Origin: Verrucomicrobiota bacterium
GTDB lineage: Bacteria > Verrucomicrobiota > Verrucomicrobiia > Limisphaerales > AAA164-E04
Direction: 5' to 3'
DNA length: 64,000 nt
NCBI GenBank assembly: GCA_047947115.1
Contig: CP170459.1
Span: forward strand, 1,824,001-1,888,000
Position 1 is the first letter of the stretch; every line of letters begins with the position of its first letter. The notes under the pieces are model-generated. The model was not told the DNA's origin, made no database searches, and saw only the letters and a list, made by a program, of their open reading frames with translations. Position numbers and translations under genes: made by a program. Positions 3,438 to 44,853 of this stretch are shown here, piece by piece.

Positions 3438-3477
3438 GTGGAGTTCGGGGTCGTACAATCAGGCATGAGGTCCTTTC

Positions 3478-4323
3478 ATGATTTGGCAAACTGCCCATAA
3501 GAGTTGGTCGTTCAAAGCTTGCCCTATCGTCATGGGTATTCTGAACGTGACACCTGATTCTTTTTCGGATGGCGGTCACTTTACGCAGGTCGAGGTTGCC
3601 GTCGAACATGCCTTGCAAATGGTTTCGGAAGGGGCTGAAATCATTGATATCGGGGGCGAATCCACGCGTCCGAATGCCGATCCGGTTGGTCTGGAGGATG
3701 AATTGCAGCGGGTCATCCCTGTGATCGAGGCATTGGCCGCCCGGTCGGATGTTTCCATCAGTATCGACACTCGCAAAGTGGAGGTTGCGCGTCAGGCTGT
3801 TGATGCGGGTGCTTCGATCATCAATGATGTGGAAGCGAATCGTCAGGACAAAGCCATGTGGGAACTGGTTGCTCGGAGTGGTGTTGGATATGTTGCGATG
3901 CACATGCAGGGGCAACCCGGCACGATGCAACAGAACCCGGTTTACGAGGATGTGCTTGTCGAGATTCGGGCTTTTTTTGAACACAGTTTGAAGCGAATTG
4001 AGTGCTGTGGTGTGAAAAAGGAACAGGTTATGCTGGATGTTGGCATAGGATTCGGTAAAACCTTGGATCATAATTTGGCGTTGCTGAGATCATTGGATAC
4101 CTTCGGGTGCTTGAACAGGCCTCTTTTGTTGGGTGTTTCCCGTAAATCCATGTTTGGCAAACTGCTTGATGTGAAAAGTCCCAAAGACCGTATGCCTGCC
4201 GGTCTGGCTTGTGCTTGTTGGGCTTTTGAGAAAGGGGTTGCTGTCATCAGGACCCACGATGTGAGTGAAACCGTCCAGGCCTTGCGCATGTGGGATGCTT
4301 TGCGCCGGGTGTCGACTATATGA
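3478..4323 (+). CDS. folP: Dihydropteroate synthase
   Basis: MGILNVTPDSFSDGG, DIGGESTRP, DVGIGFGK, GVSRKS, IRTHDV. Confidence 0.97.
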   Translation: MIWQTAHKSWSFKACPIVMGILNVTPDSFSDGGHFTQVEVAVEHALQMVSEGAEIIDIGGESTRPNADPVGLEDELQRVIPVIEALAARSDVSISIDTRKVEVARQAVDAGASIINDVEANRQDKAMWELVARSGVGYVAMHMQGQPGTMQQNPVYEDVLVEIRAFFEHSLKRIECCGVKKEQVMLDVGIGFGKTLDHNLALLRSLDTFGCLNRPLLLGVSRKSMFGKLLDVKSPKDRMPAGLACACWAFEKGVAVIRTHDVSETVQALRMWDALRRVSTI

Positions 4324-5141
4324 ATTTTGATGCCTCATGGGAAAACCTCTGGCGTCCAGTTGTGGAGATTTCCATTCTGGCGGTGGGAATCTATTACATT
4401 CTCATGTTTGTTCGGCGGACTCATGGATGGGGGGTGTTGACCGGAATTTTGGTGTTACTCGGGATGCTGGTGGTGACCACCATTCTGGATCTCACCGTTC
4501 TGAACTGGATGCTGGTTCAGTTTTTTGGTTTCTCCGCTTATGCTGTCCTGATCCTTTTTCACCCTGAAATTCGGCGACTTTTGGCCCGTCTGGGGAACTT
4601 GCCCAATTTTTCGCAGATCCGTGAGCAACGTGAAACCATTGAGGTCATCGTGCAAACTGTAGACCGGTTGTCCGATGTCAAAATTGGGGCTCTGATCGCC
4701 ATCGAGCAAAACCATGACTTGTCGCAAACGGTCGAGGTGGGGGTGCCGGTTGATTGTGATGCCACACCTGAGATGCTGGAAACCATATTCTTTCCCAACA
4801 ATGCCATCCATGACGGTGGAGTGATCATTCATGGAGATCGCATTTCTTATGCTGCCTGTATTTTCCCGTTAACCCGTCGACAGGACTTGCAGAAATCCCT
4901 GGGCACGCGCCATCGTGCCGCCATTGGGTTGAGTGAGGAAACCGATGCGGTGGTGGTTTTGGTTTCGGAGGAAACGGGGATGATTTCCTATGCGCACCAA
5001 GGCAAACTGGTGCGTGGTCTGTCCTGCGAAGAATTAAGGTCCATTCTCAGTACATTGATCGTCAAAGCACCGCGATCGGTCAAACGGGCGGCGCGGCAAC
5101 AGGAACTGCAGAGAGTCATCAAAAAGAAGACCGTTGCCTAG
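4320..5141 (+). CDS. cdaA: Diadenylate cyclase (membrane-bound CdaA/DacA)
   Basis: N-terminal TM helices, HDGG and GTRHRAAIGLSEETDA motifs; ATGA overlap with folP stop. Confidence 0.93.
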   Translation: MNFDASWENLWRPVVEISILAVGIYYILMFVRRTHGWGVLTGILVLLGMLVVTTILDLTVLNWMLVQFFGFSAYAVLILFHPEIRRLLARLGNLPNFSQIREQRETIEVIVQTVDRLSDVKIGALIAIEQNHDLSQTVEVGVPVDCDATPEMLETIFFPNNAIHDGGVIIHGDRISYAACIFPLTRRQDLQKSLGTRHRAAIGLSEETDAVVVLVSEETGMISYAHQGKLVRGLSCEELRSILSTLIVKAPRSVKRAARQQELQRVIKKKTVA

Positions 5142-5156
5142 GTAACCCTGACAAGC

Positions 5157-5573
5157 ATGAAGGATTATTTGACTCTGTTATTTTCGAATCTGACCTGGAA
5201 AATCATTTCCTTGGTCATGGCCATTGGATTGTGGGGTTTGATTCATTTGGCGGTTATTCAGGAGGATGCGGCAAGCCGGGCGGATGATGGGCCATTGGCG
5301 AGTCGGGAAATACAAAACGTTCCCATTATTGTTCAAACGTCCTCGACGGATACAAATCGTTACCTTATTTCACCCCAGGTTGTGAAGGTCAGCATTCAGG
5401 GGCAGTGGGCATTGTTGGACACGGTGGATGCCAGCAGGATCCGTGTGGTGGCCGACATGACACAGCAGACCGGTGAGGATGCTTTTGCGGTGGCCCTGGA
5501 AGTGGTGGTCCCTCCGGAATTCCAATTCCAGCGTTGCATGCCACAAAGTATCCGTGTAGAAAAATCGAATTAG
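5157..5573 (+). CDS. cdaR: YbbR/CdaR-like protein (single YbbR domain)
   Basis: N-terminal WKIISLVMAIGLW anchor, P..V.V.I.G motif, located between cdaA and glmM. Confidence 0.75.
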   Translation: MKDYLTLLFSNLTWKIISLVMAIGLWGLIHLAVIQEDAASRADDGPLASREIQNVPIIVQTSSTDTNRYLISPQVVKVSIQGQWALLDTVDASRIRVVADMTQQTGEDAFAVALEVVVPPEFQFQRCMPQSIRVEKSN

Positions 5574-5702
5574 GAGGCAGGGTTTTGATCGAATTTCAGG
5601 ATCGTCCTTTTTGAGACACTGACAGCCAATGATAAAAATCAGGGCTTGGAGGTGAAGGAGGGTGAAGGTTCTAATCGAGTTTCTTCAGACAATCATTCTA
5701 TC

Positions 5703-7100
5703 ATGTCCAAAAAAGACAAAATCAAACGTATATTTGGAACCGATGGTGTTCGTGGTCGGGCCAATGTTGAGCCGGTAACCGCTGAAACCGCACTACGTCT
5801 CGGGCGTGCCGCGGGTCATGTTTTCAAGAATATGGAATCCAAGGCGCGCGGTCACGGGAAGCATAAGATCGTCATTGGAAAAGATACCCGTCTTTCGGGT
5901 TACATGTTGGAGAATGCCATTTCCTCCGGCATTCTTTCCATGGGAGTGGATGTGTTGTTTATCGGTCCGCTCCCTACGCCCGGTGTCGCTTATGTGACAC
6001 GCAGTCTGCGAGCCGATGCGGGGCTTGTGATCACCGCTTCCCACAATCCATTTGACGACAATGGCATCAAATTTTTCAGAGCGGACGGATTCAAGCTGGA
6101 CGATAACATTGAAAATGAAATCGAAGACCTGGTTTTCAGTGGCGACATCGAATCCATTGTGCCCAGCGCCCGCGAAATTGGAAAAGCGGTTCGTATCGAC
6201 GATGCTCTTGGCCGTTACATCGAATACGCCAAATCATCCTTTCCGCGGGGATTGACTTTGGATGGAATGCGTATCGTGATTGATTGCGCGCATGGAGCCG
6301 CCTACAAAGCCGCGCCTTGCATTTTGCGTGAACTGGGTGCCGAAGTGTTTGCCTACGGAGACAAACCCGACGGCTCAAATATCAACAAAGAATGTGGATC
6401 CATGCATCCCGACCTGATATGCCGCAAGGTTTGGGAACATCGGGCGCACATCGGCATCGCCCATGATGGAGATGCGGATCGCGTGCTTCTTTGTGATGAA
6501 AATGGCAAGTTAGTGGATGGCGATGACATCATGGCCATCGCTGGAATCCACATGCTCGAAACAGGCAGCCTGGCCAAGAAGACACTCGTGGCAACGGTCA
6601 TGAGCAATGCGGGACTGGATCAGGTCATACAAAAAGCGGGGGGCAAGGTCATTCGTACGGCTGTGGGAGACAAAAACGTCATCGATGAAATGCTCAAGAA
6701 GGATTTCAACTTCGGAGGAGAATCTAGCGGGCACATCATTTTCCGCGATTACGCCACCACTGGAGACGGTTTGATTGCCGCCTTACAAATCCTTTCCATC
6801 ATGAAGGAGAAAGATGCTTCTTTGCATCAGCTTACAGGAAAATGGCAGCGATTCCCTCAAATCATTACCAATATCCGAGTTGGATCCAAACCGCCATTTG
6901 AAGAGTTGGAGGGGGTGTTGGACTTGGTGAAAGAAGCAGAAAAGGCCCTTCAGTCACAAGGGGGGCGTGTTCTCCTGCGCTATTCCGGCACAGAACCCAA
7001 GGCGCGCCTGCTGCTGGAGGGGCCGGTGCTTTCCGATCTTGAGAAATGGAACCAACCTATCGCCGACTCCTTGAGGCAAAAGATTGGTGCAGCGAGTTGA
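5703..7100 (+). CDS. glmM: Phosphoglucosamine mutase
   Basis: FGTDGVRG, TASHNP, DGDADR, GGESSGH, RYSGTEP. Confidence 0.97.
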   Translation: MSKKDKIKRIFGTDGVRGRANVEPVTAETALRLGRAAGHVFKNMESKARGHGKHKIVIGKDTRLSGYMLENAISSGILSMGVDVLFIGPLPTPGVAYVTRSLRADAGLVITASHNPFDDNGIKFFRADGFKLDDNIENEIEDLVFSGDIESIVPSAREIGKAVRIDDALGRYIEYAKSSFPRGLTLDGMRIVIDCAHGAAYKAAPCILRELGAEVFAYGDKPDGSNINKECGSMHPDLICRKVWEHRAHIGIAHDGDADRVLLCDENGKLVDGDDIMAIAGIHMLETGSLAKKTLVATVMSNAGLDQVIQKAGGKVIRTAVGDKNVIDEMLKKDFNFGGESSGHIIFRDYATTGDGLIAALQILSIMKEKDASLHQLTGKWQRFPQIITNIRVGSKPPFEELEGVLDLVKEAEKALQSQGGRVLLRYSGTEPKARLLLEGPVLSDLEKWNQPIADSLRQKIGAAS

Positions 7101-7425
7101 AATTGGCGGTGGTGTTCTATGTCCGGAGCTTGTCGCATGATGGGGCGCATTCCCGTTTTCCTGCGGATAAGTCGTTTGATGGAGTAAAAATGGTTTGTGT
7201 AAGCTTCTGTTTGTGAAGGTGTAGTGGTGTTTTGGGACGGGGTGGGGGTGAATTAGCCCTTGCACTCAGGGACAAGTTTTCTATGGTGAATTGCCGAAGG
7301 AGCCATTTCGGTTTTGATCTTGCCCCTTCACCATTACTCAGAGAGTTCACCAATATTAATCCAGAGACATCAGGGGCTAGCTTATCTTTTTTCGAAACAA
7401 TGGTTCGAAAAGTGCGTCCGGGAAA

Positions 7426-7920
7426 GTGCTGCGTGGAACGTTTTTATTTCTAAGCTTTTGGCTTTCAGCCAATGGTATTCAGAGCGCCGCAGAACCTTCC
7501 CAGCCGCGATGGGTGTCTCCTGCTGAAAGTCCCTTTCTGGCGGATGAAGGAAAATGCCTGCTCCGTTGGGAACTCCCTGAATCCGAAAATTCATCCTTCA
7601 CATTTCAGGTCGAACAGGCGGATGAATCCAATTTTTCCAATCCCCGCGTGCGTTATGAAGGTCCCGACTCGGCCACCTGCATCTCCGGTTTGCCCGAAGG
7701 CATGCATCACTACCGAGTAAGGTTGGTTTCCGATGATGAAACAGGCCCCTGGTCCGAAAGCATGGAGATCAAGGTTGAATTTGTTTCGCGACAGCTTGTC
7801 ATTATACTCCTGCTGCTGGGATCCATTGTTTTTGTGGCGACCGTCTGGGCCATCTGGAAGGGGCATTACCAATACGCCGGACCGCCAGCCTCAAATTCTA
7901 ACACAGGGGGGAGCCAATGA
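7426..7920 (+). CDS. Fibronectin type III-like protein with signal peptide and C-terminal TM anchor
   Basis: N-terminal hydrophobic segment; LRW...F.VEQ...ISGLPEG.HHYRVR...GPWS Fn3 pattern; C-terminal TM; stop overlaps next start. Confidence 0.7.
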   Translation: MLRGTFLFLSFWLSANGIQSAAEPSQPRWVSPAESPFLADEGKCLLRWELPESENSSFTFQVEQADESNFSNPRVRYEGPDSATCISGLPEGMHHYRVRLVSDDETGPWSESMEIKVEFVSRQLVIILLLLGSIVFVATVWAIWKGHYQYAGPPASNSNTGGSQ

Positions 7921-9347
7921 GCGAGGCGGATGCGAACTCCATATTGAACCCGACCATCGGTTGGGTCTTGTTGCTTCTCTTTGGCGCTGCCTGGATCGGG
8001 TTGGGAATTTACTGGGGACGACGCGCCAAGTCCTTCGACGGATTCATGTTGGCCGGGCGCAACGTGGGCATGGCTCTCGGTTCCGCAACAGCCATGGCCA
8101 CCTGGGTGACTTCCAACACTGTCATGCTCGCGCCGGTGTTCGCTCTCGAAAAAGGTGTTTGGGGCATGCTGGCATATTCCACAGCCAGTTTTGGATTATT
8201 GTTGTTCGCTCCTCTCAGCGCTCGCATTCGTCAATTGATCCCCAAAGGCTACACCAGCGGTGATTTTATGCGATTGCGCTACGGCAAGCTTGCGTGGGTG
8301 TTGTTCCTGTTGATTACCGTGGTCTATTCCTTGGCCTGGCTGGTTAGCATGGGAACCGCAGGCGGCAAGTTGCTGCAAACCTTATCCGGCATTCCTTATG
8401 TCAATGGAATGAGCATGATTCTCTTTGTTTGCGTTGTTTACACACTCTTCGGGGGGCTTTATGCCGTCATTGGAACGGATTTCATCCAGAGTATCATCAT
8501 CCTGATCGGTGTGGTCCTGGTAGGAGGACTAGTATTGTTGAAGACGGATATGGCTGAGGTTTATCAATCGATGGAACGCCATCAACCCTCGCTGATCAAT
8601 GCCTTGATGCCGGTTGCCTTGCTTTCCTTGTTCAACAACATGTTCTTTGGGTTCGGAGAGGTGTTCCACAACAACGTCTGGTGGAGTCGGGCCTATGCCA
8701 TGCGAAAGGACGTGGCTCCCAAGGCATTTTTTGTCTCGGGTCTGCTCTGGTTTCCGATTCCCATTGCCGCCGGTTTCATCGCGTTGAGTGCTTCAGCTCT
8801 GGGTATCAATGTCATTGATCCCAACACCGTGGGGCCTTTGGTTGCCAGTTCGGTGCTGGGCAAATCGGGGGCCATTCTGGTGTTTGTCGTGGTGTTCTGT
8901 TCGCTGGCTTCCAGTATTGACAGTTTGCTGGCCGCTACTTCGGATCTACTTGTAGAGGATGTGGGTAGGAAAATGTTGGGCGTTGGCGGGAGCGAAGACC
9001 AATTGCGCACCTTCTCCAAACTCGTGATCTGCGGTCTGGGGATGTTGACCTGGATACTGTGTGCCCGGGAAATGAATCTTCTGGAAATACTGTTTTTGTC
9101 CGGTCCGTTGGTTGCCAGTGCCATATGGCCGGTTCTGGGCGGTTTATATTGGGAAAAAGCAAGCAGCTCAGGAGCCGTGCTGGCCATGATAACGGGAAGT
9201 GTGGTCGGTTTGGTTGCTTATTACAAATTGGGTTGGTACACCGCTTCTCTGATCAGTGCTGCCGTTTCCATGGTGGTGATGTTGGTTTTTGCGTCCTTTC
9301 AACGACAGGCTTTTGATTGGGAAACGATTTCCAAAGCTTCAAATTAA
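7917..9347 (+). CDS. Sodium:solute symporter family transporter (DUR3/PutP-like)
   Basis: About 13 TM helices; FMLAGRNVG, YTLFGGLYAVIGTDFIQ, SSIDSLL SSS motifs. Confidence 0.9.
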   Translation: MSEADANSILNPTIGWVLLLLFGAAWIGLGIYWGRRAKSFDGFMLAGRNVGMALGSATAMATWVTSNTVMLAPVFALEKGVWGMLAYSTASFGLLLFAPLSARIRQLIPKGYTSGDFMRLRYGKLAWVLFLLITVVYSLAWLVSMGTAGGKLLQTLSGIPYVNGMSMILFVCVVYTLFGGLYAVIGTDFIQSIIILIGVVLVGGLVLLKTDMAEVYQSMERHQPSLINALMPVALLSLFNNMFFGFGEVFHNNVWWSRAYAMRKDVAPKAFFVSGLLWFPIPIAAGFIALSASALGINVIDPNTVGPLVASSVLGKSGAILVFVVVFCSLASSIDSLLAATSDLLVEDVGRKMLGVGGSEDQLRTFSKLVICGLGMLTWILCAREMNLLEILFLSGPLVASAIWPVLGGLYWEKASSSGAVLAMITGSVVGLVAYYKLGWYTASLISAAVSMVVMLVFASFQRQAFDWETISKASN

Positions 9348-9350
9348 GAT

Positions 9351-9485
9351 ATGACAATGCATTTACCCATACCTGCTTTCATTGTGACCTTGATCGTCTA
9401 TGGCTCCCTTCTGGGAGTCAGTCTTGGTGTCATCGTATTACTACGCATGTTTTGGAAAGATTGGAAAAAAGGGGAATTATGGTAG
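9351..9485 (+). CDS. Small single-pass membrane protein, 44 aa (not in ORF track)
   Basis: MTMHLPIPAFIVTLIVYGSLLGVSLGVIVLLRMFWKDWKKGELW; starts 3 nt after the symporter stop and overlaps the next ATG (9479). Confidence 0.75.
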   Translation: MTMHLPIPAFIVTLIVYGSLLGVSLGVIVLLRMFWKDWKKGELW

Positions 9486-10591
9486 ATGAATCTCAGCAGT
9501 CGGAAGAGTTAAAGCCGAATCAGGTCGCTCAGTATATTGAGCCACCCGCCGATTCGGACACACTGAACCCCGAACCGGGACCGCTCTTCGAGTCCAATCC
9601 CATTCGATTGAAAGTCCTGCGCGAACTTAAAGGGAAATCCGTTCTCTCAGCGCGACAGTTTACCAGGGAGCAGGTCATCGAATTGGCCAAACTCGCGGCA
9701 TTTCTGGAGAAAGTGGAGATCGCTTCGTGTCACCCGCTGGATGGTAAAATGGCGATCACGGCCTTTTTTGAAGCGAGTACCCGAACGCGCATTTCTTTTG
9801 AAAGTGCCGTGTTGCGCCTGGACGGGAAAATCATCAGCATCCCTGAAGGGGGTACTACCGGGGCCAAAAAAGGCGAATCGCTTTCGGACATGGCCGAAAT
9901 GTTCAATGCTTATGGGGATATGGTCATCATGCGGCATACCGAAACCGATTCGGTGGATCAAATCATGCGTAATCTCCGAGTCCCGCTGATCAATGCCGGA
10001 AATGGAAGCGGAGAACACCCAACACAAGCTCTTGCGGATTGGTATGCTCTTTTGAAATGGCGACCCGATCTGATCGATACCCAACCCACCCGGGGAAAAT
10101 CCTTGAATCTCGGAATTCTCGGCACTCCGGGCAGCATGCGTGCGGTGAAAAGCTTTCTACTGATGTCACTTCTGTTCCAGGCCAATATCGGAAGGGTAAC
10201 TGTTATTTCTGAAATGGCCGATCCTTTCGGTGCAGATGTGATCGATGATCTTAAACAGGCTGGCATCAATTATGAAGTGACTCATGATATACAACAGCAC
10301 CTTGCCCAGTTGGACGTCATTTACATGAACAGTATCGCATTTTTAGGCGACAGTTATCGCAAACTCGATTCGCGTTATAAGTTGAACAGGAAAAGTGCGC
10401 TTAAAAAGGAGGCGGTCATTCTTCATCCGCTCGCACGTGCGGATGAGCTGGATCCGGATCTGGATGACACCCCTCACAATCTTTACTTTGCACAAGCTCA
10501 CGGCGCGGTCTTTATAAGGCAAGCCTTGCTGATTTCGATTTTTGGGCGACTCGATCGATTGCCCTCACAAATTCCATCGATCGAATCCTGA
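9479..10591 (+). CDS. Aspartate/ornithine carbamoyltransferase family protein with divergent acceptor site (PyrB-like paralog)
   Basis: FFEASTRTRISFE, KGES, MRH, NAGNG.GEHPTQAL, HPL.R present; ATCase YMTRxQxER loop replaced by YMNSIAFLG. Confidence 0.88.
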   Translation: MVDESQQSEELKPNQVAQYIEPPADSDTLNPEPGPLFESNPIRLKVLRELKGKSVLSARQFTREQVIELAKLAAFLEKVEIASCHPLDGKMAITAFFEASTRTRISFESAVLRLDGKIISIPEGGTTGAKKGESLSDMAEMFNAYGDMVIMRHTETDSVDQIMRNLRVPLINAGNGSGEHPTQALADWYALLKWRPDLIDTQPTRGKSLNLGILGTPGSMRAVKSFLLMSLLFQANIGRVTVISEMADPFGADVIDDLKQAGINYEVTHDIQQHLAQLDVIYMNSIAFLGDSYRKLDSRYKLNRKSALKKEAVILHPLARADELDPDLDDTPHNLYFAQAHGAVFIRQALLISIFGRLDRLPSQIPSIES

Positions 10592-10601
10592 TTCTGATAT
10601 T

Positions 10602-12560
10602 ATGTGTGGTATAGCGGGTATATTCTCAGGGCAAAGCCTTCCGGATGTCACCGGTGAGCATGTCGCCAACATGTTGAAAGTCATCCGGCATCGTGGACCG
10701 GATGGGGAACGCATGCACCTCGATATGAACAAGGGGGTTGCGATGGGGCATGCACGATTGTCGATCAACGATCTTCAAAACGGGCATCAACCATTGGTGT
10801 CCACCGACAAGAAGATGGTGCTGACGGTCAACGGCGAGTTCTACGATTTCAAGAAGTGCCGATCCATGGCCATGGCCGAAGGTTATCGATTCGCCACGCA
10901 TTCCGACAGCGAAATCGCCATGTTTCTTTACAGGAAACATGGACTCGATTTCATGAGTCGATTGCGGGGTGAGTTTGCTTTTACTTTGTTCGATGAAAAC
11001 AAAGATCAATTTCTCCTGGTGCGTGATCGGTGGGGAATCAGGCCTTTATTTTATACAATCGTCAAAGATACGCTTTATTACGCTTCCGAGGTCAAAGCCT
11101 TGCTCGCGCATCCCGAGGTCGAGGCGCGCCTATGTCCACAATCCGCTCTCAACCAACTCATGCAGACCATGGTGCCGGGGCGGACGGCATTCAAGGATGT
11201 GCATGCCCTTCATCCGGGACGCATGTTGGTGGTGACCCGCACGGGCGGACGTCTGCAGATCAATGAGCAGACTTACTGGGATGTCGATTTCCCAACCCAC
11301 GAAGAGGGTCATAGCAAGGCTGAACCGCGTGAATTGATCAGGCAAGTTCGTGAAAAGCTCGTGGAATCGATTGTCCTGCGATTGGAAGCGGATGTCCCCG
11401 TTGGATGCTATCTTTCGGGGGGAATTGACAGTTGTTCCATTCTGGGGTTGGCAACCGGAGCCATGCAAAGCGCAGTGAAGGCCTTTACCATCAGCTTTGA
11501 TGATGATAAGTTCGATGAATCCCACATCGCCCGTGAAATGGCCGTGAGCATGCAGGCCGATCAGGAAGTGATCCATCTCAAGGCGGATGATCTTTACGGT
11601 GATAACTTCATCCAAACCGTTTGGCATGCGGAACGTACTTTCTACAACACTCTTGGTGTGGCCAAAAACCTCATGAGCCGACGCGTGCATGAATGCGGAT
11701 ACAAAACCGTTATCACCGGTGAGGGTTCCGATGAATTGTTTGCCGGTTACCCTTCTTTCAAGCGGGACATGATCCTGCATGGACTGGATGATGAACCCGA
11801 AGAGGTCCGCCGGGAGTATCAAGCGCAAATGCGGCAGTCAAACAAGTTGTTCACGGGATCCATTCTCTCTGAAAATCCCGAAACACATCCAGCATTTGAA
11901 GCATTATGCGGATTCACTCCCTCATGGATTCAACCATGGATCGCCACTCTGCGTCATGCCCGGCCATTGATGCATCCTGATTTGAAGGAGCTGAAGTCCT
12001 ATGATCCCATCGCAGCCATCGCGGATCAAATCCGGCCAAATCGTGTGGAACATCGTCATGCCGTGGACAAGGCGCAATACACGTGGAGCAAGACACAATT
12101 GGAAGGGCAGATTTTAAGTTGGGGGGGGGATCGCGTCGATATGGCCAACAGCATGGAATCACGACCTGCATTCCTGGATCACCATTTGGCCGAAGTAGCA
12201 TTTACAATTCCACCACATTATCGCATTCGTAATAACATCGAGAAATGGGTGCTGCGTGAAGCGGTGCGAGGCGTGTTGCCCGAGGTGTTGTATCAGCGCG
12301 AGAAGTTTGCCTTCATGGCTCCGCCCGCTCACACGGATGAACACAAGGCGCGCAAGTTGAACGATCTGATCGAAACCTATCTGTCACCGGACAAGGTCAG
12401 CGACGCCGGGCTTTTCGAATGCTCGAAGGTTGCCCAGTTCCTGACTGATTATCGCGCCGATAAAGATCCTGTTTCTCTTACAAGAAAGGATACCTTGATC
12501 AATCACTTGCTGTGTCTGCAAATCATGCACCACCTCTTTGTTAAAGGTCATGGATTCTAA
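10602..12560 (+). CDS. asnB: Asparagine synthetase B-type glutamine amidotransferase
   Basis: MCGIAG (Ntn Cys2), HRGPDG, NGEFY, SGGIDS PP-loop, TGEGSDELFAGY, DRVDMANSMESR. Confidence 0.92.
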   Translation: MCGIAGIFSGQSLPDVTGEHVANMLKVIRHRGPDGERMHLDMNKGVAMGHARLSINDLQNGHQPLVSTDKKMVLTVNGEFYDFKKCRSMAMAEGYRFATHSDSEIAMFLYRKHGLDFMSRLRGEFAFTLFDENKDQFLLVRDRWGIRPLFYTIVKDTLYYASEVKALLAHPEVEARLCPQSALNQLMQTMVPGRTAFKDVHALHPGRMLVVTRTGGRLQINEQTYWDVDFPTHEEGHSKAEPRELIRQVREKLVESIVLRLEADVPVGCYLSGGIDSCSILGLATGAMQSAVKAFTISFDDDKFDESHIAREMAVSMQADQEVIHLKADDLYGDNFIQTVWHAERTFYNTLGVAKNLMSRRVHECGYKTVITGEGSDELFAGYPSFKRDMILHGLDDEPEEVRREYQAQMRQSNKLFTGSILSENPETHPAFEALCGFTPSWIQPWIATLRHARPLMHPDLKELKSYDPIAAIADQIRPNRVEHRHAVDKAQYTWSKTQLEGQILSWGGDRVDMANSMESRPAFLDHHLAEVAFTIPPHYRIRNNIEKWVLREAVRGVLPEVLYQREKFAFMAPPAHTDEHKARKLNDLIETYLSPDKVSDAGLFECSKVAQFLTDYRADKDPVSLTRKDTLINHLLCLQIMHHLFVKGHGF

Positions 12561-13833
12561 AGATTCTCCACGCCATAATTCACCGCTTCCCGAAGGGATA
12601 AAAGTGGATTTGGAACGTATCAAACGTCACGTCCTGGCCCTGGCTGACATCGGCAAAAACACCCAGGATCACGGCGTCTACCGGATGGCGTTTTCCGATG
12701 CCGACATGGAGGCCAAGCGTTGGTTGTTGGAACAAATTGACGCCGCAGGGTTGGAATCCCGTTCCGATGGCGCCGCCAACATCTTTGGTGTGCTCAAGTC
12801 CGGCAACGATCTGCCGAGCTTGTTGGTTGGATCGCACATTGATACTGTTCCTTGTGCCGGAACCTTGGATGGATCGCTGGGTGTGGTGGTGGGTTTGGAA
12901 TGCCTGCGAGTCATGCATGATACGGGACTCGCCATTGAGCGAGATGTGGAACTGGTCGCGTTCAGCGACGAGGAGGGTCGCTTCGGAGGTATGCTGGGGT
13001 CCGAATCGTTTTGTGGATTGACCACACCCCAGACCGTTCAATCGGCCGTTGATTCCAATGGCGTTTCCTTGAAAGACGCCATGTTGCGACAAGGTCTGGA
13101 TCCCATGAAGATCCTGGAGGCACATCGCGATCCGAAGTCGGTGAGTCGGTACATTGAACTGCACATTGAGCAGGGGCCGGTGCTTGATCGTAAACAATTG
13201 CAAATCGGCATTGTTGATGAAATTACCGGACTCTTCCGTTGGAACATGCGGATTCAGGGCGAATCAAATCACGCCGGGACGACCCCGATGGACATGAGAC
13301 GCGATGCCTTCATGGGGTTGGCTGATTTTGCCCACGAGATACCTCGTGTTCTTGAAGAGATTGGTTCAGAACGAAGCCGTGCCACGATTGGGACTGCAGA
13401 GATTCTGCCTGGTGCGGCCAATACGGTTCCAGGGACCGTTGAGTTCACGCTTGATGTGAGGGATACCAGTGAGGAGATTTTGTCTGCATTGAAAGACGCG
13501 TTGCGTCGTGCCCTTTCCGTCATTTGCCGTCGCCGTTCCCTGACGTTTGATTTTGAAGAACCCAGTTTTATTCATCCGGTGAAGTGTGATGGAGACATCG
13601 TTGGTTTGATCGAGCAACATTCCCGGTCGTTGGACTATTCCTATCTGATCATGCCCAGCGGAGCGGCGCACGATGCCCAGATCATGGGGAGACTTTGGCC
13701 AGTGGGGATGATCTTTGTGCCGAGTCGTGGTGGGGTGAGTCATTCGCCTGCCGAATGGAGCCCGTGGACGGATATCGAAGCTGGCGCAAATGTTTTACTC
13801 AAAACCTTGGTATCACTGGCTCAGTCTGCTTAG
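12550..13833 (+). CDS. M20 Zn-dependent N-carbamoyl-L-amino-acid amidohydrolase (allantoate amidohydrolase / beta-ureidopropionase family)
   Basis: GSHIDTV, LDG.LGV, DEEGRFG, ELHIEQGPVL, NHAGTTPM, SGAAHDAQ, GVSHSPAE. Confidence 0.92.
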   Translation: MDSKDSPRHNSPLPEGIKVDLERIKRHVLALADIGKNTQDHGVYRMAFSDADMEAKRWLLEQIDAAGLESRSDGAANIFGVLKSGNDLPSLLVGSHIDTVPCAGTLDGSLGVVVGLECLRVMHDTGLAIERDVELVAFSDEEGRFGGMLGSESFCGLTTPQTVQSAVDSNGVSLKDAMLRQGLDPMKILEAHRDPKSVSRYIELHIEQGPVLDRKQLQIGIVDEITGLFRWNMRIQGESNHAGTTPMDMRRDAFMGLADFAHEIPRVLEEIGSERSRATIGTAEILPGAANTVPGTVEFTLDVRDTSEEILSALKDALRRALSVICRRRSLTFDFEEPSFIHPVKCDGDIVGLIEQHSRSLDYSYLIMPSGAAHDAQIMGRLWPVGMIFVPSRGGVSHSPAEWSPWTDIEAGANVLLKTLVSLAQSA

Positions 13834-13846
13834 TTTTCTCAATAAA

Positions 13847-14587
13847 ATGAATCAATCAACAACCCCTGAGCGACAGGATCCGCTGCGCGATACATACCGA
13901 GAAGGATTTGTCACCAACCCGGCACATTACGAATTCCTGCTTCAGAAGGATGTGGCTCTCCTTTGTATTGATATGCAGTACCTTGACGCCGCAGAAGGAT
14001 ACGGAGTGTTCAAGGAACCTGAAGACGGGAGCGCGCATCCCATTCCGGCCGAAGCCAAACGGTACTATTTCGACTCGCTGAACAAACGTGTGATTCCCAA
14101 CATGCATGTGCTACAGAATTGTTTTCGCTCCCACAAGCTGGAAGTCATACACACACGCATCCAATCCCTCACCCAGAACGGTCGTGATCGGGGTAAAGGG
14201 CACAAACGACTCAAACTGCTTGCCCGGCCCGGATCTGCTGAAGCTTGTTTTCTGGAAGAAGTGGCGCCCATGGGAGACGAAATCGTGATCAACAAAACGG
14301 CCAGCGGGGTGTTTTCATCCACCAATATTCATTACGTTCTCAAAAACATAGGCATCCAGTCACTTTATGTGTGTGGTGTTTACACAAATGAGTGTGTGGA
14401 AACGACCGTTCGAGATGCCTGCGATCTGGGTTATCTGGTGACCATGGTGGAGGATGCCTGTACCACCGTGACGCAGGAACTTCAGGACGCCAGTATCAAA
14501 ACGCTTAAAGACCGTTATGCACGTATCCTGAAAACCCAGGAAGTCATCGACGAAATCCATCAACTCGTCGGAGACCGGTTTCCATGA
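13847..14587 (+). CDS. Isochorismatase-family cysteine hydrolase (amidase)
   Basis: Asp-Lys-Cys triad IDMQ / INKT / TNECVETTVRDACDLGY. Confidence 0.9.
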   Translation: MNQSTTPERQDPLRDTYREGFVTNPAHYEFLLQKDVALLCIDMQYLDAAEGYGVFKEPEDGSAHPIPAEAKRYYFDSLNKRVIPNMHVLQNCFRSHKLEVIHTRIQSLTQNGRDRGKGHKRLKLLARPGSAEACFLEEVAPMGDEIVINKTASGVFSSTNIHYVLKNIGIQSLYVCGVYTNECVETTVRDACDLGYLVTMVEDACTTVTQELQDASIKTLKDRYARILKTQEVIDEIHQLVGDRFP

Positions 14588-14631
14588 ATGGGGTCTTCGG
14601 GATGAAGAGATTTTGCTGTACGGTAGCTGTT

Positions 14632-14873
14632 CACCTTCTGGCGAAGGGGCTACTTCAGGTGGAACGTGACGTCCCGCCGCGTCCCTTGTGGTGTTCTAAT
14701 TTCTTTTGCTGCCCGTTTTGGGAGGCCCAGAAATGATCGATGCCCCATCGTCCTATTAGACTCACCCCGGACAGATCGAGATCAAGAAGTCGTATGGGGT
14801 TAATGTGCGCCGATCCACCTTCTGGCGAAGGCTGCTACTTGATCGTGGTGTAGCCGCGCTTGCCAAAGCGTGG
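14632..14873. repeat. Cluster of short REP-like palindromes
   Basis: CACCTTCTGGCGAAGG(G/CT)GCTAC at 14632-14653 and 14816-14838; GTAGCCGCGCTTGCCAAAGCGTGG at 14850-14873; GTAG-ended hairpins. Confidence 0.7.
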
Positions 14874-14916
14874 CAGCTTCCCTCAGAATGAGTTCGTTCC
14901 ATTCATAGGCTGATTG

Positions 14917-16290
14917 ATGTTCGATATCGTGAAAAAACAACAAACAAACTGGGTGTCCAGTGTTCTTGCTATATGGGTGTTTTATCTGTCAGGAATCGTT
15001 GCATGCACCGCAGATACCCGCCCCAACGTGGTCTTGATCATCAGTGATGATCAGGCTTGGTCCGATTATGGGTTCATGGGGCATGAGGTGCTCGTCACGC
15101 CTCATCTGGATCGATTGGCCGCTCGCAGTTTGGTGTTTGAGCATGGGTATGTGGCGGCACCTCTGTGCCGTCCTTCTCTGGCTACGATGATCACCGGGAG
15201 GTTCCCGCAGCATCATGGCGTGGTGGGCAACGATGTGGATGGCATGAATCAACGCGCTGCTTTGGACGTTCCATTGCGTGAAGCGTTTCATCGACACCCC
15301 AGTTTGGTTCGGCTTCTGAGTGATAGCGGTTATCTGACACATCAATCCGGCAAGTGGTGGGAAGGTTCGTGGCAGGATGGTGGTTTCACGCATGGCATGA
15401 CACATGGTGATCCCAAGCGAGGTGGGCGTCACGGAGATGAAGGGCTCAAGATTGGTCGTGAAGGCATGCAACCGGTGACGGATTTCATCGATCAAGCCGT
15501 ATCGGAGCAGAAGCCGTTTTTCATCTGGTATGCGCCGTTCCTGCCTCACACGCCTCACAATCCACCAAAGCGGTTATTGAGCAAGTATACCGGCCGTGGG
15601 TTGGCTTTGGACATTGCGAGTTACTACGCCATGTGCGAATGGTTCGACGAAACTTGTGGCGCGGTGCTGAATCATATCGACCACAAGGGTCAACGCGAAA
15701 ACACAATCGTTATCTACATCGCCGACAATGGGTGGGCGGCGACCAGCACCAACGCCGAGGATCCGAATCAGGATCAATGGAAAGGGTACGCGCTGCGATC
15801 CAAAGGTTCTCCCTACGAGATGGGGATCCGAACACCGATCCTTGTTTCCTGGCCAACAAAGGTTGTGCCGGACCGTGTGGATCATTTCGCGCATGCGATC
15901 GATTTGTTCCCCACCATCGCCCAAGCGACCGGCATCGACGCCCCGGACGATCTTCCTGGTGTCAACCTGATGGACCCTGTTGCCAGGTCCGGTCGGGAAC
16001 GCGTTTTCGGTGTGACACATTCCATTCATAATCTCACCGTGGGGAATCCCGACGATACCCTTCAATACCTCTGGTGTGTCGAAGGTGACTGGAAACTGAT
16101 TCTGCGATACTCTGGCGAAGATACCACTCGTTACCGCAATGTGCACCTTTGGGACAAAGTGCCATTGCGGCTTTACAACCTGAAGAATGACCCTCACGAG
16201 ACGACCGACCTTGCTTTGCAACACCCCGAGAGAAGCGATCGTTTGCGCCGTGTAATCGAAGCTTGGTATTCGGTCAGCAAGGAGCACTGA
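14917..16290 (+). CDS. Formylglycine-dependent sulfatase (S1)
   Basis: PNVVLIISDD, LCRPSL..MITG, GKWW, PHTPH, DNG, KG..YE.G.RTP, LYNLKNDPHE. Confidence 0.9.
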   Translation: MFDIVKKQQTNWVSSVLAIWVFYLSGIVACTADTRPNVVLIISDDQAWSDYGFMGHEVLVTPHLDRLAARSLVFEHGYVAAPLCRPSLATMITGRFPQHHGVVGNDVDGMNQRAALDVPLREAFHRHPSLVRLLSDSGYLTHQSGKWWEGSWQDGGFTHGMTHGDPKRGGRHGDEGLKIGREGMQPVTDFIDQAVSEQKPFFIWYAPFLPHTPHNPPKRLLSKYTGRGLALDIASYYAMCEWFDETCGAVLNHIDHKGQRENTIVIYIADNGWAATSTNAEDPNQDQWKGYALRSKGSPYEMGIRTPILVSWPTKVVPDRVDHFAHAIDLFPTIAQATGIDAPDDLPGVNLMDPVARSGRERVFGVTHSIHNLTVGNPDDTLQYLWCVEGDWKLILRYSGEDTTRYRNVHLWDKVPLRLYNLKNDPHETTDLALQHPERSDRLRRVIEAWYSVSKEH

Positions 16291-16302
16291 TCGGTGTCGA
16301 AC

Positions 16303-16346
16303 ATTCTGGCGAAGGCGCCTGCGTAGCTGCGCTTGCGAAAGCGTGG
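16303..16346. repeat. Degenerate REP-like pair between convergent genes
   Basis: ATTCTGGCGAAGG...GTAGCTGCGCTTGCGAAAGCGTGG, matches the units at 14816-14873. Confidence 0.6.
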
Positions 16347-16358
16347 TGATGTTTGTGT

Positions 16359-17354
16359 TTATCCTCGGCTGAGATTCACAGCAAGGTGGATGGCGCTGTA
16401 GAGGCTGCTTGGGTTGGCCTTGCCTTGCCAGGCGATGTCCAGTGCGGTGCCGTGGTCGACACTGGTTCGGATGATGGGCAAGCCGAGAGTTGTGTTGACC
16501 GCGTTGTCGAAGGCAAGTGCTTTGACCGGGATATGGCCCTGATCGTGATACATGCAGACGAAGACATCGGTTGACTCACGTTTCCAGGGCAGGAAGGCGG
16601 TGTCGGGTGGGAGCGGGCCTTCCACGTCGATCCCTTTTTCGCGTGCTGATTCAATGGCTGGTATAATGATGTTCTCTTCTTCTCGATTGCCAAACAATCC
16701 GTGCTCCCCGGCATGTGGGTTGAGACCACAAACGACCACTTTGGCTTTTCGTTTGCGAATGCGTTCGAGGTTTTCGGCAGAGAGTTCGATGACTTCCAGA
16801 ATGCGTTCTTTTGTCAGTAAACCCGGGACTTCGGCGTAGCCGACATGTACCGTGACAAAAGTGCATGTGATTTCCTTCGAATATTGCATCATGCACCATC
16901 GGTCCGATCCGGCTCTGGCGGCAAACATTTCGGTATGGCCGGGGAAGGGGATCTTTGCCTGATGGAGCGCCTCTTTGTTAATAGGCGCCGTGGTGACAGC
17001 TGCAACCTTGCCAGCAAGGGCTGCATCAATGGCTTTCTGGATGTAATCGAAACTGGCCTTGCCGGTGTTGGCGCTGACGGTTCCCGGTTGGAAGTTTAAG
17101 TGATCCAATGAAGGGACTTGGACAATGGAGGGTAAGTCAGGTTGATTCCCCGATGACGCATCTTCCAAGGAAAGGATGGCCACGTCCCTGGGGAGGTCGA
17201 GCTTTTCGGCGCATTGTCGCAGGACCTCAACATCTCCGAAAATCACCGGAATGCAACTTTCAAGCACGCCGGGTTCCCTCAAAGCTCGCAAGCAGATCTC
17301 CGGCCCAACCCCGGCCGGATCTCCCATGGTAATGGCGATAACAGGTTTATTCAT
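16359..17354 (-). CDS. pdxA: 4-hydroxythreonine-4-phosphate dehydrogenase (PdxA / PdxA2 family)
   Basis: TMGDPAGVGPE, GHTE, GLNPHAGE, MYHDQGHIP, RTSVDHGTA. Confidence 0.93.
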   Translation of the reverse strand: MNKPVIAITMGDPAGVGPEICLRALREPGVLESCIPVIFGDVEVLRQCAEKLDLPRDVAILSLEDASSGNQPDLPSIVQVPSLDHLNFQPGTVSANTGKASFDYIQKAIDAALAGKVAAVTTAPINKEALHQAKIPFPGHTEMFAARAGSDRWCMMQYSKEITCTFVTVHVGYAEVPGLLTKERILEVIELSAENLERIRKRKAKVVVCGLNPHAGEHGLFGNREEENIIIPAIESAREKGIDVEGPLPPDTAFLPWKRESTDVFVCMYHDQGHIPVKALAFDNAVNTTLGLPIIRTSVDHGTALDIAWQGKANPSSLYSAIHLAVNLSRG

Positions 17355-17583
17355 TTTTCGCGCTCCAAACTAAGACGCGCCCATATGAATTGCCAATGTG
17401 AATTTCAGAATTAAAACGACAGATTCCATCTCAGTAGTCAGAAAAGCTTTCAAAGGGAAATCCTGTCATTCCAGTAAATCCTGTCTATAAATCATTTCAG
17501 TCCAAACTCTCGAAAGGATAGCTCATTGACGAATCAGAAGGTGTTGCGAATAATCGGTGGGAGTGAAAAAGACGGATTGAGGA

Positions 17584-19767
17584 GTGGATTTTGATTTTAT
17601 GCTGGACAAGCTTCTACAAGCACTGAAGACGAATCGGGGGCTAGGCGAAATGCACGCTGGCGCAGTAAATGGCGGAGTAAACGTCATGGCTGCCGATACC
17701 GAAAACCTCCCAGGTAACCGTGCCATTGTCGAAACTCCTTTTTCACTACTTCGCTCGGTGCAGCAGTTCCTGCTTTTCTGGGGGATGTTATGGTGCATTT
17801 TTTATTTAGGAGCGGTTCATGGCGAAACGATTGATGGGCCTACCCATTGGTCTCTGGTTCCAATACGGGATGTTTCTTTGTTCAAGGTGGATGATCATGA
17901 GTGGAATGAACATCCTATCGATCGCCTGGTTTATCGACAACTGGATCAACGCCATTTGCAGCCTTCTCCTGAAGCGGACGCCCGGACTTTGATACGTCGA
18001 TTGAGTTTCGATCTGACCGGTTTGCCGCCTTCACTCGAGGAGGTGGACTTGTTTCTAGATGATGCTTGCGGTGGAGTCTACGAACGCCTGGTTGAGCGTC
18101 TGTTGGAGAGCCCTCACTATGGGGAGCACATGGCCCGCTATTGGCTGGATCTGGTGCGGTATGCCGATACGCACGGGTTGCACGCGGACGATTACAGGGA
18201 GATGTTCAAATACAGGGATTGGCTGATCGATGCTTTCAATCGTAATCAATCTTTCGACTCTTTCATTTTGGAACAAGTTGCGGGAGATTTATTGCCTGAC
18301 CCAAGCAATGATCAATTGGTCGCCAGTGGATTCAACCGCCTGCATTTGTCCAATAGCGCCGGGTCCGCCCTGGAGGAGGAATTGTATTATAATAATGTGG
18401 TCGATCGGGTGAATGCTGTCGGGACCGTTTTCCTGGGTCTTACCTTGGGTTGCGCTCAGTGCCACGATCATAAGTCCGATCCGATCACCATGCGCGAGTA
18501 TTACCAGATCTTTGCCTTCTTCAACAACCTCGACGGACTCTCCCACACGCAACGCAAGAAGAGTCCGCCTCCGTTCCTGAGTTTTCCTTCAAACGAGCAA
18601 TCGGTTTTGATGTCGGAATTAAAAGCAAAGTTGGATGCGAATTCGGCGGATAAAGATGAGGTGGATAAACTGAAGAAGGAATTGGCATCCCTCGAAAGAG
18701 CGATCCCGACCACCATGATCATGCGCGAGCGGTCCGAGATGAGACCCGCCCATATTTATCGACGCGGGCTCTACGATCAAGCAGGAGTCGAAGTTCAACG
18801 TTGCACTCCACAGGCGTTGCCTCCGATGAAACCGGATCATCCCCTCAATCGCCTGGGTTTTGGCCAATGGTTGATCGATCGCGATCACCCACTGACCGCT
18901 CGGGTGGCCGTGAATCGATTCTGGCAACAGTTGTTCGGTGTGGGGTTGGTCAAGACCTCCGAGGATTTTGGTGTATTGGGGAGTGCTCCATCTCACCCCG
19001 AATTGCTGGATCATCTGGCTCATCGTTTTGTTGAGTCGGGTTGGGACGTCAAAGCACTGCTCAAATACATCGTGACCAGTCGTACCTATCGTCAAACTTC
19101 CAACGCCAGTGAAGAGGTCTACCGGCAGGATCCGGAGAATCGTTGGTTGAGCCGTGGATCGCGCTTCCGTCTGGATGCGGAAATGTTGCGTGACCAAGCC
19201 CTTGCCGTTTCCGGTTTGCTGGACCGGACTTTGTTCGGGCGAAGCGTCAAGCCACCTCAACCCGATGGGCTTTGGAAATCGGTGGCGTTGGCCGTTTCCA
19301 ACACGCGGGTTTATGAGCCCGATCAAGGAGCGGACATTTACCGGCGCAGCATTTACACCTTTTGGAAACGATCCATTCCGCACCCCGTCATGACCATTTT
19401 TGATGCGCCCACGCGCGAAGTGTGCACCGCTCGTCGCGAACGCACCAATACGCCATTGCAAGCGTTGGTTCTGATGAACGAACCTCAATTTGTTGAATGT
19501 GCCGTCACCCTTGCTAAAAGAACCCTTATTGAAGGAGGGACGACTGATATGGATCGGATGCGTTACGTGTGGGAGATAACGACCAGCCGGACCATTGATG
19601 CGGATGAAATGGAGATGATGCTCAATGGGCTGCGCTTCTTTCGTGATGCATACGCCGAACGATCATCCATTCCATTCGGGGATACGGAACTCAATCAGGA
19701 AGAAGCCGCCTGGACGATGGTGGTGCACACACTTTTGAATCTGGACATTGTGAAAACGCGACCATGA
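17584..19767 (+). CDS. DUF1549/DUF1553 (PSD1) domain protein; true start probably downstream (near 17785)
   Basis: [64 protein letters not shown]. Confidence 0.9.
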
Positions 19768-44617: not shown

Positions 44618-44739
44618 TCGGGTGGAATTCAAATCGAATGATGCTTTACTTTTCGATTTTTTCAGGAGGTCTCATGTCTCGAGCGGTTCACTGTAACATC
44701 GGCAAGCCCGAACTGTGGATAATGGCACCAGCTGATTAA
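43558..44739 (+). CDS. Multi-pass membrane protein, M48/Ste24-like architecture without HExxH
   Basis: About 6 TM; GGIVGLPGREQIILP, SRRATLAIDH, IFHPIP..QNRL mirror M48 motifs. Confidence 0.6.
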   Translation: MQSNHSNNVKPTSFLPEDRKAAAFPPTYPTARLLSGISAVGVMNLLCLALLATGVFHTLIPMVSDNALTDLLVVLAFVLAYAMIMSPLDFITGHWIPGQYGRPVTLKLRTYLKGSLLHCLVLGSSILILHGAGQIGGLSLAALLLILIFIFAIRFQLHTAICVGVLQKMDGPCHILPDLEAIWVESKDPCFSGGIVGLPGREQIILPSKWYHAYGADFMRYLHMRRQKATHSGWRSRGMIFAGAWVLMSFLLSAYLVGFPEGGLISTLHLSLLSSVFHFLGLLILPTPSRRATLAIDHWMQQSIGSEHAFKDWIQKFSNMTDGEVQRGRWIERIFHPIPAVQNRLHQYRSTHLIGWNSNRMMLYFSIFSGGLMSRAVHCNIGKPELWIMAPAD

Positions 44740-44853
44740 CCTCCATTCTGAGAAATACCTCTTTTCATCCATTTTGTCTCAGCTTTTGGTTATCATGCCT
44801 GCCAACCTCAAACATTCCCACTAACTCGATCTTACTCTATCATTCCTGCCAGC

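Follow-up and report, generated by a model that had tools for sequence, protein, structure and literature searches.

A seven-gene operon of a Verrucomicrobiota bacterium as a candidate route to the solute N-carbamoyl-L-glutamine 1-amide

Introduction

What does a bacterium make with an operon that joins a carbamoyltransferase and an amidotransferase to two hydrolases and a transporter? The question is raised by positions 7426-14587 of a 64,000-nucleotide stretch (the window) of contig CP170459.1 from a Verrucomicrobiota bacterium (assembly GCA_047947115.1). An earlier note on this DNA described seven close-packed genes on the plus strand and suggested that they make N-carbamoyl-L-glutamine 1-amide (CGA) or a relative. 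The seven open reading frames (ORFs) are found at that place with gaps of -11 to +13 nt (in order -4, +3, -7, +10, -11 and +13 nt). The suggestion is supported by the wider search reported here, in which the genes co-occur widely and the species that produces CGA carries the enzyme cluster. The most probable reading, at roughly 62%, is that the operon makes, re-imports and recycles CGA as an osmolyte. The genes are as follows.

7426-7920, plus strand: gene of a fibronectin type III (Fn3)-fold protein; no Pfam match; GTG start, tentative
7917-9347, plus strand: DUR3-related sodium:solute symporter gene; Pfam SSF
9351-9485, plus strand: gene of a 44-aa membrane micro-protein; hydrophobic, no family match
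9479-10591, plus strand: gene of a carbamoyltransferase with the fold of aspartate carbamoyltransferase (ATCase); Pfam OTCace_N and OTCace
10602-12560, plus strand: AsnB-type amidotransferase gene; Pfam GATase_7 and Asn_synthase
12550-13833, plus strand: M20 hydrolase gene; Pfam Peptidase_M20
13847-14587, plus strand: cysteine hydrolase gene; Pfam Isochorismatase

From gene content, residues, linkage and presence in the producer species we infer the substrates, the order of the steps and the direction of transport in a route of four steps. In the first step the carbamoyltransferase would carbamoylate glutamine (or glutamate) at its alpha-amino group, with carbamoyl phosphate as donor; this step is placed first because an arginine for binding a free alpha-carboxylate is retained in the enzyme. 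The AsnB-type enzyme would then adenylate the carboxylate and amidate it with nitrogen from glutamine, as AsnO does for N-acetylglutaminylglutamine amide (NAGGN). Leaked solute would be re-imported by the symporter, its small subunit and the Fn3 partner. In the last step the cysteine hydrolase would remove the amide and the M20 hydrolase the carbamoyl group, returning glutamine and ammonium.

A carbamoyltransferase family apart from PyrB

Related loci were collected with a GC-biased, exact pattern run over 185,579 genomes, which gave at least 120 stretches; 80 of these with flanks, together with three from the window's phylum, make up the 83 loci analysed. When the carbamoyltransferases are mapped to E. 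coli PyrB, the residues for carbamoyl phosphate (Ser52, Thr53, Arg54, Thr55, Lys84, Arg105, His134 and Gln137) are kept in 81/81 relatives, and so is the equivalent of Arg167 (Arg221 in the window). In ATCase, Arg167 is taken to bind the alpha-carboxylate, and Arg229 and Gln231 the aspartate side chain. Arg229 is replaced by Ala, Ser or Thr in all 81 relatives (Ser285 in the window), and Gln231 is absent from all 81, with Ala in 67 (Ala287 in the window). These counts are not circular, since another motif was used to find the loci. At position 228 the family has an invariant Asn (window Asn284), and this Asn, Arg221 and the small residues at 229 and 231 are common to both of its branches.

Model searches and phylogeny also place the enzyme outside PyrB. 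It does not reach the NCBIfam pyrB equivalog cut-offs (178.8 vs 263 bits and 178 vs 237 bits), and its structure model has the ATCase fold, with TM-scores of 0.85-0.89 by target length and E. coli and archaeal chains at the top. In a quick tree, 47 rows group in a single long-branch clade with an SH-aLRT of 100, separate from PyrB and ArgF. The clade divides into a branch rich in Planctomycetes, Verrucomicrobia and Chlamydiae, which holds the window, and a proteobacterial-cyanobacterial group, which holds Ectothiorhodospira. Three genes of the ATCase/ornithine carbamoyltransferase (OTCase) family are present in 5/5 genomes tested, and of the three this carbamoyltransferase matches the substrate-domain model least well; the other two in the window genome are a pyrB with both Arg229 and Gln231 and an argF-like gene. 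The inference from these residues is that the enzyme belongs to a separate family whose acceptor is an alpha-amino acid with a free carboxylate, other than aspartate and probably with a longer or neutral side chain. Glutamine is the likely acceptor.

A plasmid search with the carbamoyltransferase gave no match at 1e-50, and the family pattern gave 0 matches in viral contigs. Within the clade there is also a sister subfamily of about 355 aa (P0136, P0141, P0143 and kin; L260:5577-6719 and L261) that has lost the STRT motif and much of the C-terminal site. In the two loci seen, its gene is solitary and apart from the operon; it may encode a pseudo-enzyme or ligand sensor.

The AsnB-type enzyme and the hydrolases

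The glutaminase and adenylation residues of the AsnB-type enzyme are intact (C1, R49, N74, G75, D98, the PP-loop, E348, Y357 and K449). Arg324 of E. coli AsnB, which we take to be needed for aspartyl-AMP formation, is Gly or Ala in 18/18 sampled; the Asp384/Arg387 region aligns unreliably with the E. coli enzyme owing to insertions. The broad TIGR01536 cut-off is passed, and the scores lie below the cut-offs for the E. coli type (PRK09431, 278 vs 499 bits) and for the AsnO equivalog (TIGR03104, 282 vs 570 bits). The enzyme is predicted to amidate the alpha-carboxylate of a carbamoylated amino acid in an ATP- and glutamine-dependent reaction. The simplest alternative weighed in the earlier note, a plain ATCase beside a plain asparagine synthetase, is not favoured, as residues required by an ATCase and by an asparagine synthetase of the E. 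coli type are missing.

Could the enzyme still supply asparagine? The window genome has asparaginyl-tRNA synthetase (AsnRS), no AsnA, and, besides the operon gene, a single weak AsnB-like gene that lies in a cluster of polysaccharide type, so the operon AsnB could have a part in asparagine synthesis. However, AsnRS is present and AsnB over the cut-off absent in four of five relatives that lack the cluster, so the operon AsnB does not look necessary for this purpose. AsnRS over the cut-off was not found in three carriers (E. mobilis DSM 4180, Synechococcus MIT S9452 and Thioalkalivibrio halophilus), in which GatB is present. When plasmids were searched with AsnB, the 40 matches listed were distant paralogs with less than 40% identity.

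The Asp-Lys-Cys triad of the cysteine hydrolase is invariant in 44/44 proteins, and the window protein scores far below the BiuH and RutB cut-offs; an amidase for the terminal amide is predicted. Cyanobacterial loci are without this hydrolase, and a DUF1028 protein takes its place in five loci, which fits an interchangeable amidase step. For the M20 hydrolase the best-scoring named equivalog is the N-carbamyl-glutamate amidohydrolase ErtE, under the cut-off (364 vs 520).

A transporter with a predicted small subunit

The closest solved structure to the symporter is DUR3 (E 1e-29). Among the urea-site residues named for DUR3 in PMC11840088, W93, T98, Y117 and W338 are kept, and the others are replaced: W95 by Thr in 56/57, Q124 by Gly in 57, N305 by Gly or Ser, D312 by Ser or Asn, and E402 by Leu or Val. 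Thus one Trp of the dyad (W338) is kept and the other (W95) replaced, and the acidic D312 and E402 are not kept; Y461 falls in a poorly aligned stretch. The pattern suggests a sodium-driven site that is roomier than that of DUR3, for a ureido solute larger than urea. In Gammaproteobacteria the symporter was found in 22/400 genomes, 21 of which also have the carbamoyltransferase.

A hydrophobic ORF lies between the symporter and carbamoyltransferase genes in 62/62 symporter-bearing loci. The last residue is Trp in all 62 micro-proteins, although they were not selected for it, and the 44-aa ORF is on both counts a real gene. A complex prediction of the symporter with the 44-aa protein scored 0.85 against 0.00 for the best control, with runs agreeing in at least 97% of contacts and a partner predicted local distance difference test score (pLDDT) of at least 84; the mark used was reached by 116/157 solved pairs and 2/215 mismatched pairs. 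The prediction supports binding, and the 44-aa protein is predicted to be a small subunit of the symporter.

The AlphaFold2 model of the first protein of the operon (pLDDT 88) matches fibronectin type III domains in Foldseek and has a long hydrophobic helix near the C-terminus. Its gene is present in 32/52 loci, always with the symporter, and in E. mobilis the two genes lie together at a locus of their own. The protein is likely to be an accessory of the transporter. In two loci Fn3 has a methyltransferase gene next to it. One is L259, in which a distant, different AsnB stands beside the Fn3-symporter pair on a short contig, and whose genome (G538) gave no carbamoyltransferase match; the other is L209 (14475-15332), with no asnB within 9 kb.

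Gene linkage and distribution

The earlier note expected the genes to co-occur elsewhere, and the cassette is indeed found across many phyla. The asnB gene lies directly 3' of the carbamoyltransferase gene in 63 of the 67 loci with enough downstream DNA; forty short loci (L210-L249) with too little flank were excluded from the synteny counts. The four exceptions are two Streptomyces, one gammaproteobacterium and one member of the Bacteroidota, in which the two genes are separated by an inserted 965-aa ORF that has no Pfam match (L166:6008-8905). In the Streptomyces loci (L163 and L168) the carbamoyltransferase gene stands beside genes for a pyridoxal phosphate-dependent decarboxylase, an iron redox enzyme and an oxidoreductase. 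L168 also has thymidylate-synthase-like, thioesterase and polyketide-synthase-like genes, and both loci look like part of a natural-product cluster not yet characterised. The asnB gene is also directly 3' in 15/17 metagenome loci that were collected with other motifs (L262-L278), and the other two contigs end there.

Among the 52 loci with at least 7 kb on each side, asnB is present in 49, the symporter and M20 genes in 40 each, the cysteine hydrolase in 33 and Fn3 in 32. The symporter, the four enzymes and Fn3 occur all together in 22 of the 52, and the grouping is for that reason not a matter of chance. The synthetic pair is the most constant part of the cassette, and the transporter and hydrolases vary. 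Where a partner is not nearby it may lie elsewhere: the cysteine hydrolase was found in 3/5 genomes without a nearby copy, and the symporter in 3/3 Ectothiorhodospira tested.

The carbamoyltransferase itself is found in 3/300 genomes in the window's phylum, 2/40 relatives and 24/400 Gammaproteobacteria (about 6%; this set contains the centre genome, two further members of its family and an unpublished genome, G652, and one genome is unscored; the symporter count of 22/400 comes from the same set). Halorhodospira and Halomonas are not among the matches listed, which is no evidence of absence as the pattern is GC-biased and exact. Carbamate kinase, which the earlier note did not see, is not found over the cut-off in the window genome or in 5/5 genomes tested.

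A cluster of this kind in marine cyanobacteria, mentioned in the earlier note, does exist. An asnB-pyrB2-pydC cluster has been proposed as a possible alternative pyrimidine route and is described as common in Synechococcus of warm, iron-replete, nitrogen- and phosphorus-depleted water (PMC10119275). In the supplement of that paper one island (Syn_GI119, Pro_GI020) holds ureP/DUR3, a small membrane protein, pyrB2, asnB, pydC and an Ntn hydrolase; the Prochlorococcus columns with pyrB2 lack ureP, and some Prochlorococcus have pyrB2-asnB-pydC without a transporter. Synechococcus MIT S9452 carries the same content and order with genes of the operon's families. The island is the same cassette by content and order, which is how it was matched, rather than by the sequence of those strains.

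Ectothiorhodospira, the source of CGA

CGA was reportedly described as a salt-protection solute in 1991. It is accumulated by E. marismortui (PMC1224877), a name filed under E. mobilis at NCBI, and DSM 4180 is listed as the E. marismortui type strain (PMC7824335). Ectothiorhodospira was expected to carry the carbamoyltransferase and AsnB before it was searched, and all seven genes are present in E. mobilis DSM 4180. The enzymes, 45-59% identical to those of the window (52-59% for the partner genes), are encoded in the row marR-M20-cysteine hydrolase-carbamoyltransferase-asnB, divergent from an adjoining sucrose synthase gene. Fn3-symporter-peptide is on another contig (loci L190 and L257 together). 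Three genes of the ATCase/OTCase family occur in this strain, and the operon carbamoyltransferase is the only spare candidate found because the other two are argF-like and pyrB-like and a NodU-type carbamoyltransferase was not found there. In the E. mobilis family 49/55 genomes have the carbamoyltransferase.

Osmotic context and expression

Is there a link to osmotic stress? A MarR gene is present in 31/83 loci, 12 of which match EctR-position proteins at E<=1e-20. One of these 12 EctR-like proteins hit 39 plasmid records, and in 3/3 of those examined the gene lies divergently 5' of ectABC. Genes for glycine/sarcosine and dimethylglycine methyltransferases (betaine synthesis) occur in 5/83 and 6/83 loci, BCCT and MscS in 5/83 each, and sucrose synthase in 9/83, all of them Ectothiorhodospira; ectA and ectC are in 0/83. 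Two further neighbours were not counted, glnA beside the cluster in some Thioalkalivibrio, which is on the opposite strand, and TrkH beside the symporter of E. mobilis and E. haloalkaliphila.

In T. versutus AL2 and T. nitratis ALJ2 the cluster, identified by product name and order rather than by sequence, is transcribed during growth in a mineral medium of thiosulfate and nitrate that contains no organic nitrogen (PMC8092127, supplement 2). The carbamoyltransferase of T. versutus AL2 has 658-1068 raw reads against 410-789 for pyrB, slightly lower at 10 C. Transcription without organic nitrogen argues against induction by an imported substrate and shows no stress induction.

What does the operon make?

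A number of points weigh against CGA as the product and against its role as an osmolyte. The support is genomic, not biochemical, and the residues do not tell Gln apart from Glu, Asn or a further acceptor. The window and Ectothiorhodospira carbamoyltransferases lie on different branches at 45% identity and differ at His153/Asp and Phe288/Trp, so the substrate of the window enzyme may be a different one. PMC3857566 describes CGA as minor among solutes and as known from a single organism, but within the E. mobilis family the genes are near-core; the contrast between Ectothiorhodospira and the base rate of about 6% is truly smaller than it seems because saline lineages are richer in this carbamoyltransferase. 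The osmolyte-type neighbours are drawn from a small number of lineages and cannot be counted as independent, and no osmolyte gene adjoins the window operon. The MarR of E. mobilis is only 23-28% identical to EctR, and no EctR-like gene is found in the window genome at E<=1e-6. The cluster is not cold-induced, unlike betaine content, and no salt-induction data for it were found in the literature searched. T. versutus D301 is reported to have betaine as its main solute, and the main text of that study does not mention carbamoyl compounds and is silent on the cluster genes in its salt transcriptome (PMC9062515). Finally, the cyanobacterial island tracks nitrogen- and phosphorus-depleted water, where an osmolyte with four nitrogens would be costly. 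The rarity of CGA reports may mean that the compound has been missed, that it is kept at a low level or that the product varies.

Several of these points are shared by the strongest alternative, in which the same chemistry gives another N-carbamoyl amino-acid amide (of Asn, Glu, Ala or similar), or the product is mainly a nitrogen store or overflow and not an osmolyte. It is favoured by the active-site differences between the two branches (A and B, about 45% identical), by the single organism reported for CGA, by the waters of the island and by the Streptomyces members without asnB among biosynthetic genes, which show that the family can serve other products. We consider it unlikely overall, since Asn284, Arg221 and the small residues at 229 and 231 are shared by both branches, the partner genes remain 52-59% identical between the window and E. 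mobilis, and osmolyte-type regulators and neighbours are seen on both branches.

A catabolic or salvage pathway, with import of urea or a ureido compound, release of ammonium by the hydrolases, the carbamoyltransferase running backwards to carbamoyl phosphate and AsnB fixing the nitrogen, has a DUR3-related symporter (annotated as a urea transporter or ureP), two hydrolases and the link to nitrogen-depleted water in its favour. One Thioalkalivibrio genome also has a near-cut-off carbamate kinase elsewhere (331 vs 358 bits). However, such a pathway is improbable when the synthetic pair is constant and the transporter and hydrolases vary, the symporter is nearly always in genomes with the carbamoyltransferase (21/22), the Trp reported as necessary for urea transport (W95; PMC11840088) is Thr in 56/57, the cluster is transcribed without organic nitrogen and 5/5 genomes lack a carbamate kinase over the cut-off. 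Least probable is a second ATCase with an asparagine synthetase, as the labels pyrB2, asnB and pydC, the suggestion in PMC10119275, the TIGR01536 score and the AsnRS of a window genome without AsnA or another strong AsnB would have it, given that Arg229 and Gln231 are gone in 81/81 beside a canonical pyrB with both in the window genome, that E. coli Arg324 is replaced, that three carriers have GatB and no AsnRS over the cut-off, and that 4/5 cluster-free relatives with AsnRS do without an AsnB over the cut-off.

Synthesis and recycling of CGA is therefore the preferred reading. The cluster is real and conserved, and it is uncharacterised in the literature searched, which took in few subscription papers or theses and gave no gene assignment for CGA or the cluster. 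A wider claim, to which we give somewhat less than an even chance, is that the missing CGA pathway is this family and that CGA, a solute with four nitrogens, is widespread and has been overlooked in marine Synechococcus, some Prochlorococcus, Verrucomicrobia, Planctomycetes and saline Gammaproteobacteria. On this view a carbamoyltransferase of new specificity would make it, and the three-part transporter that recaptures it would be the one at present labelled a urea transporter. If this is true, the first candidate genes for CGA would be in hand and a niche-linked island of abundant marine Synechococcus would gain a function. The labels pyrB, asnB, urea transporter and allantoate amidohydrolase would be wrong for this family in at least eight phyla, and estimates of urea-uptake capacity that are based on ureP would have to be reconsidered. 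There would be a target mass for marine metabolomics, an added substrate for the ATCase fold and an added type of small subunit for the solute symporters.

Genomic setting

The host genome is a single contig of 6.08 Mb, and its named close homologs are Verrucomicrobia. On the 5' side of the operon are folP, the diadenylate cyclase gene CdaA, a YbbR-like gene and glmM (window 3478-7100), and on the 3' side a sulfatase gene; these are not among the common neighbours of related loci. Cyclic di-AMP is linked to osmotic control. An Rfam search of window 5000-18000 gave no match, and a promoter scan gave promoter-like sites only at chance level. RNA-library contigs from an estuary and sea water (8.2 kb covering 7296-15446 and 12.5 kb covering 2644-15173) were not used as evidence, because they also cover the flanks and contigs cannot show transcription.

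Elsewhere in the window, the intergenic stretch 14588-14913 after the operon has short repeats with about 30 weak matches across the genome, a family resembling repetitive extragenic palindromic elements. An MscS channel gene at 24789-26123, about 10 kb 3' of the operon, is probably unlinked. Genes for an ADP-ribosylglycohydrolase, an unknown protein, a type III polyketide synthase and a methyltransferase stand in a row at 42425-47667; a second ADP-ribosylglycohydrolase gene is at 60477-61508 and an IS21-like pair at 47986-50244.

Comparison with known systems

The carbamoyltransferase has the same fold as PyrB and keeps its carbamoyl phosphate site and Arg167, but it is without Arg229 and Gln231, its 230s loop is shortened and it has the invariant Asn228. 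DUR3 is the nearest solved relative of the symporter, which differs in the smaller residues at W95, Q124 and N305, in non-acidic residues at D312 and E402, and in its predicted small subunit. The picocyanobacterial island differs from the window operon in that cyanobacteria are without the cysteine hydrolase and Fn3, and their M20 protein is more distant (36-38%). With the CGA of Ectothiorhodospira, the synthetic enzymes correspond to the two groups that are added and the type strain carries the cluster, whereas the compound is reported from one organism and the gene link is putative.

The NAGGN operon (asnO-ngg, PA3458-PA3461) has a divergent MarR repressor, AsnO and a peptidase (PMC8070244). 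Both systems would cap the amino group of a glutamine-derived solute, amidate its carboxylate with an AsnB paralog and carry a hydrolase. A MarR gene, which encodes the repressor there, is found here in 31/83 related loci and not in the window genome at E<=1e-6. The cap would be a carbamoyl group from an ATCase-fold enzyme rather than an acetyl group from Ngg, and the seven genes include no Ngg-like gene, a dedicated three-part symporter and two hydrolases. By analogy, the operon appears to resemble the NAGGN system in its working and is not a member of it.

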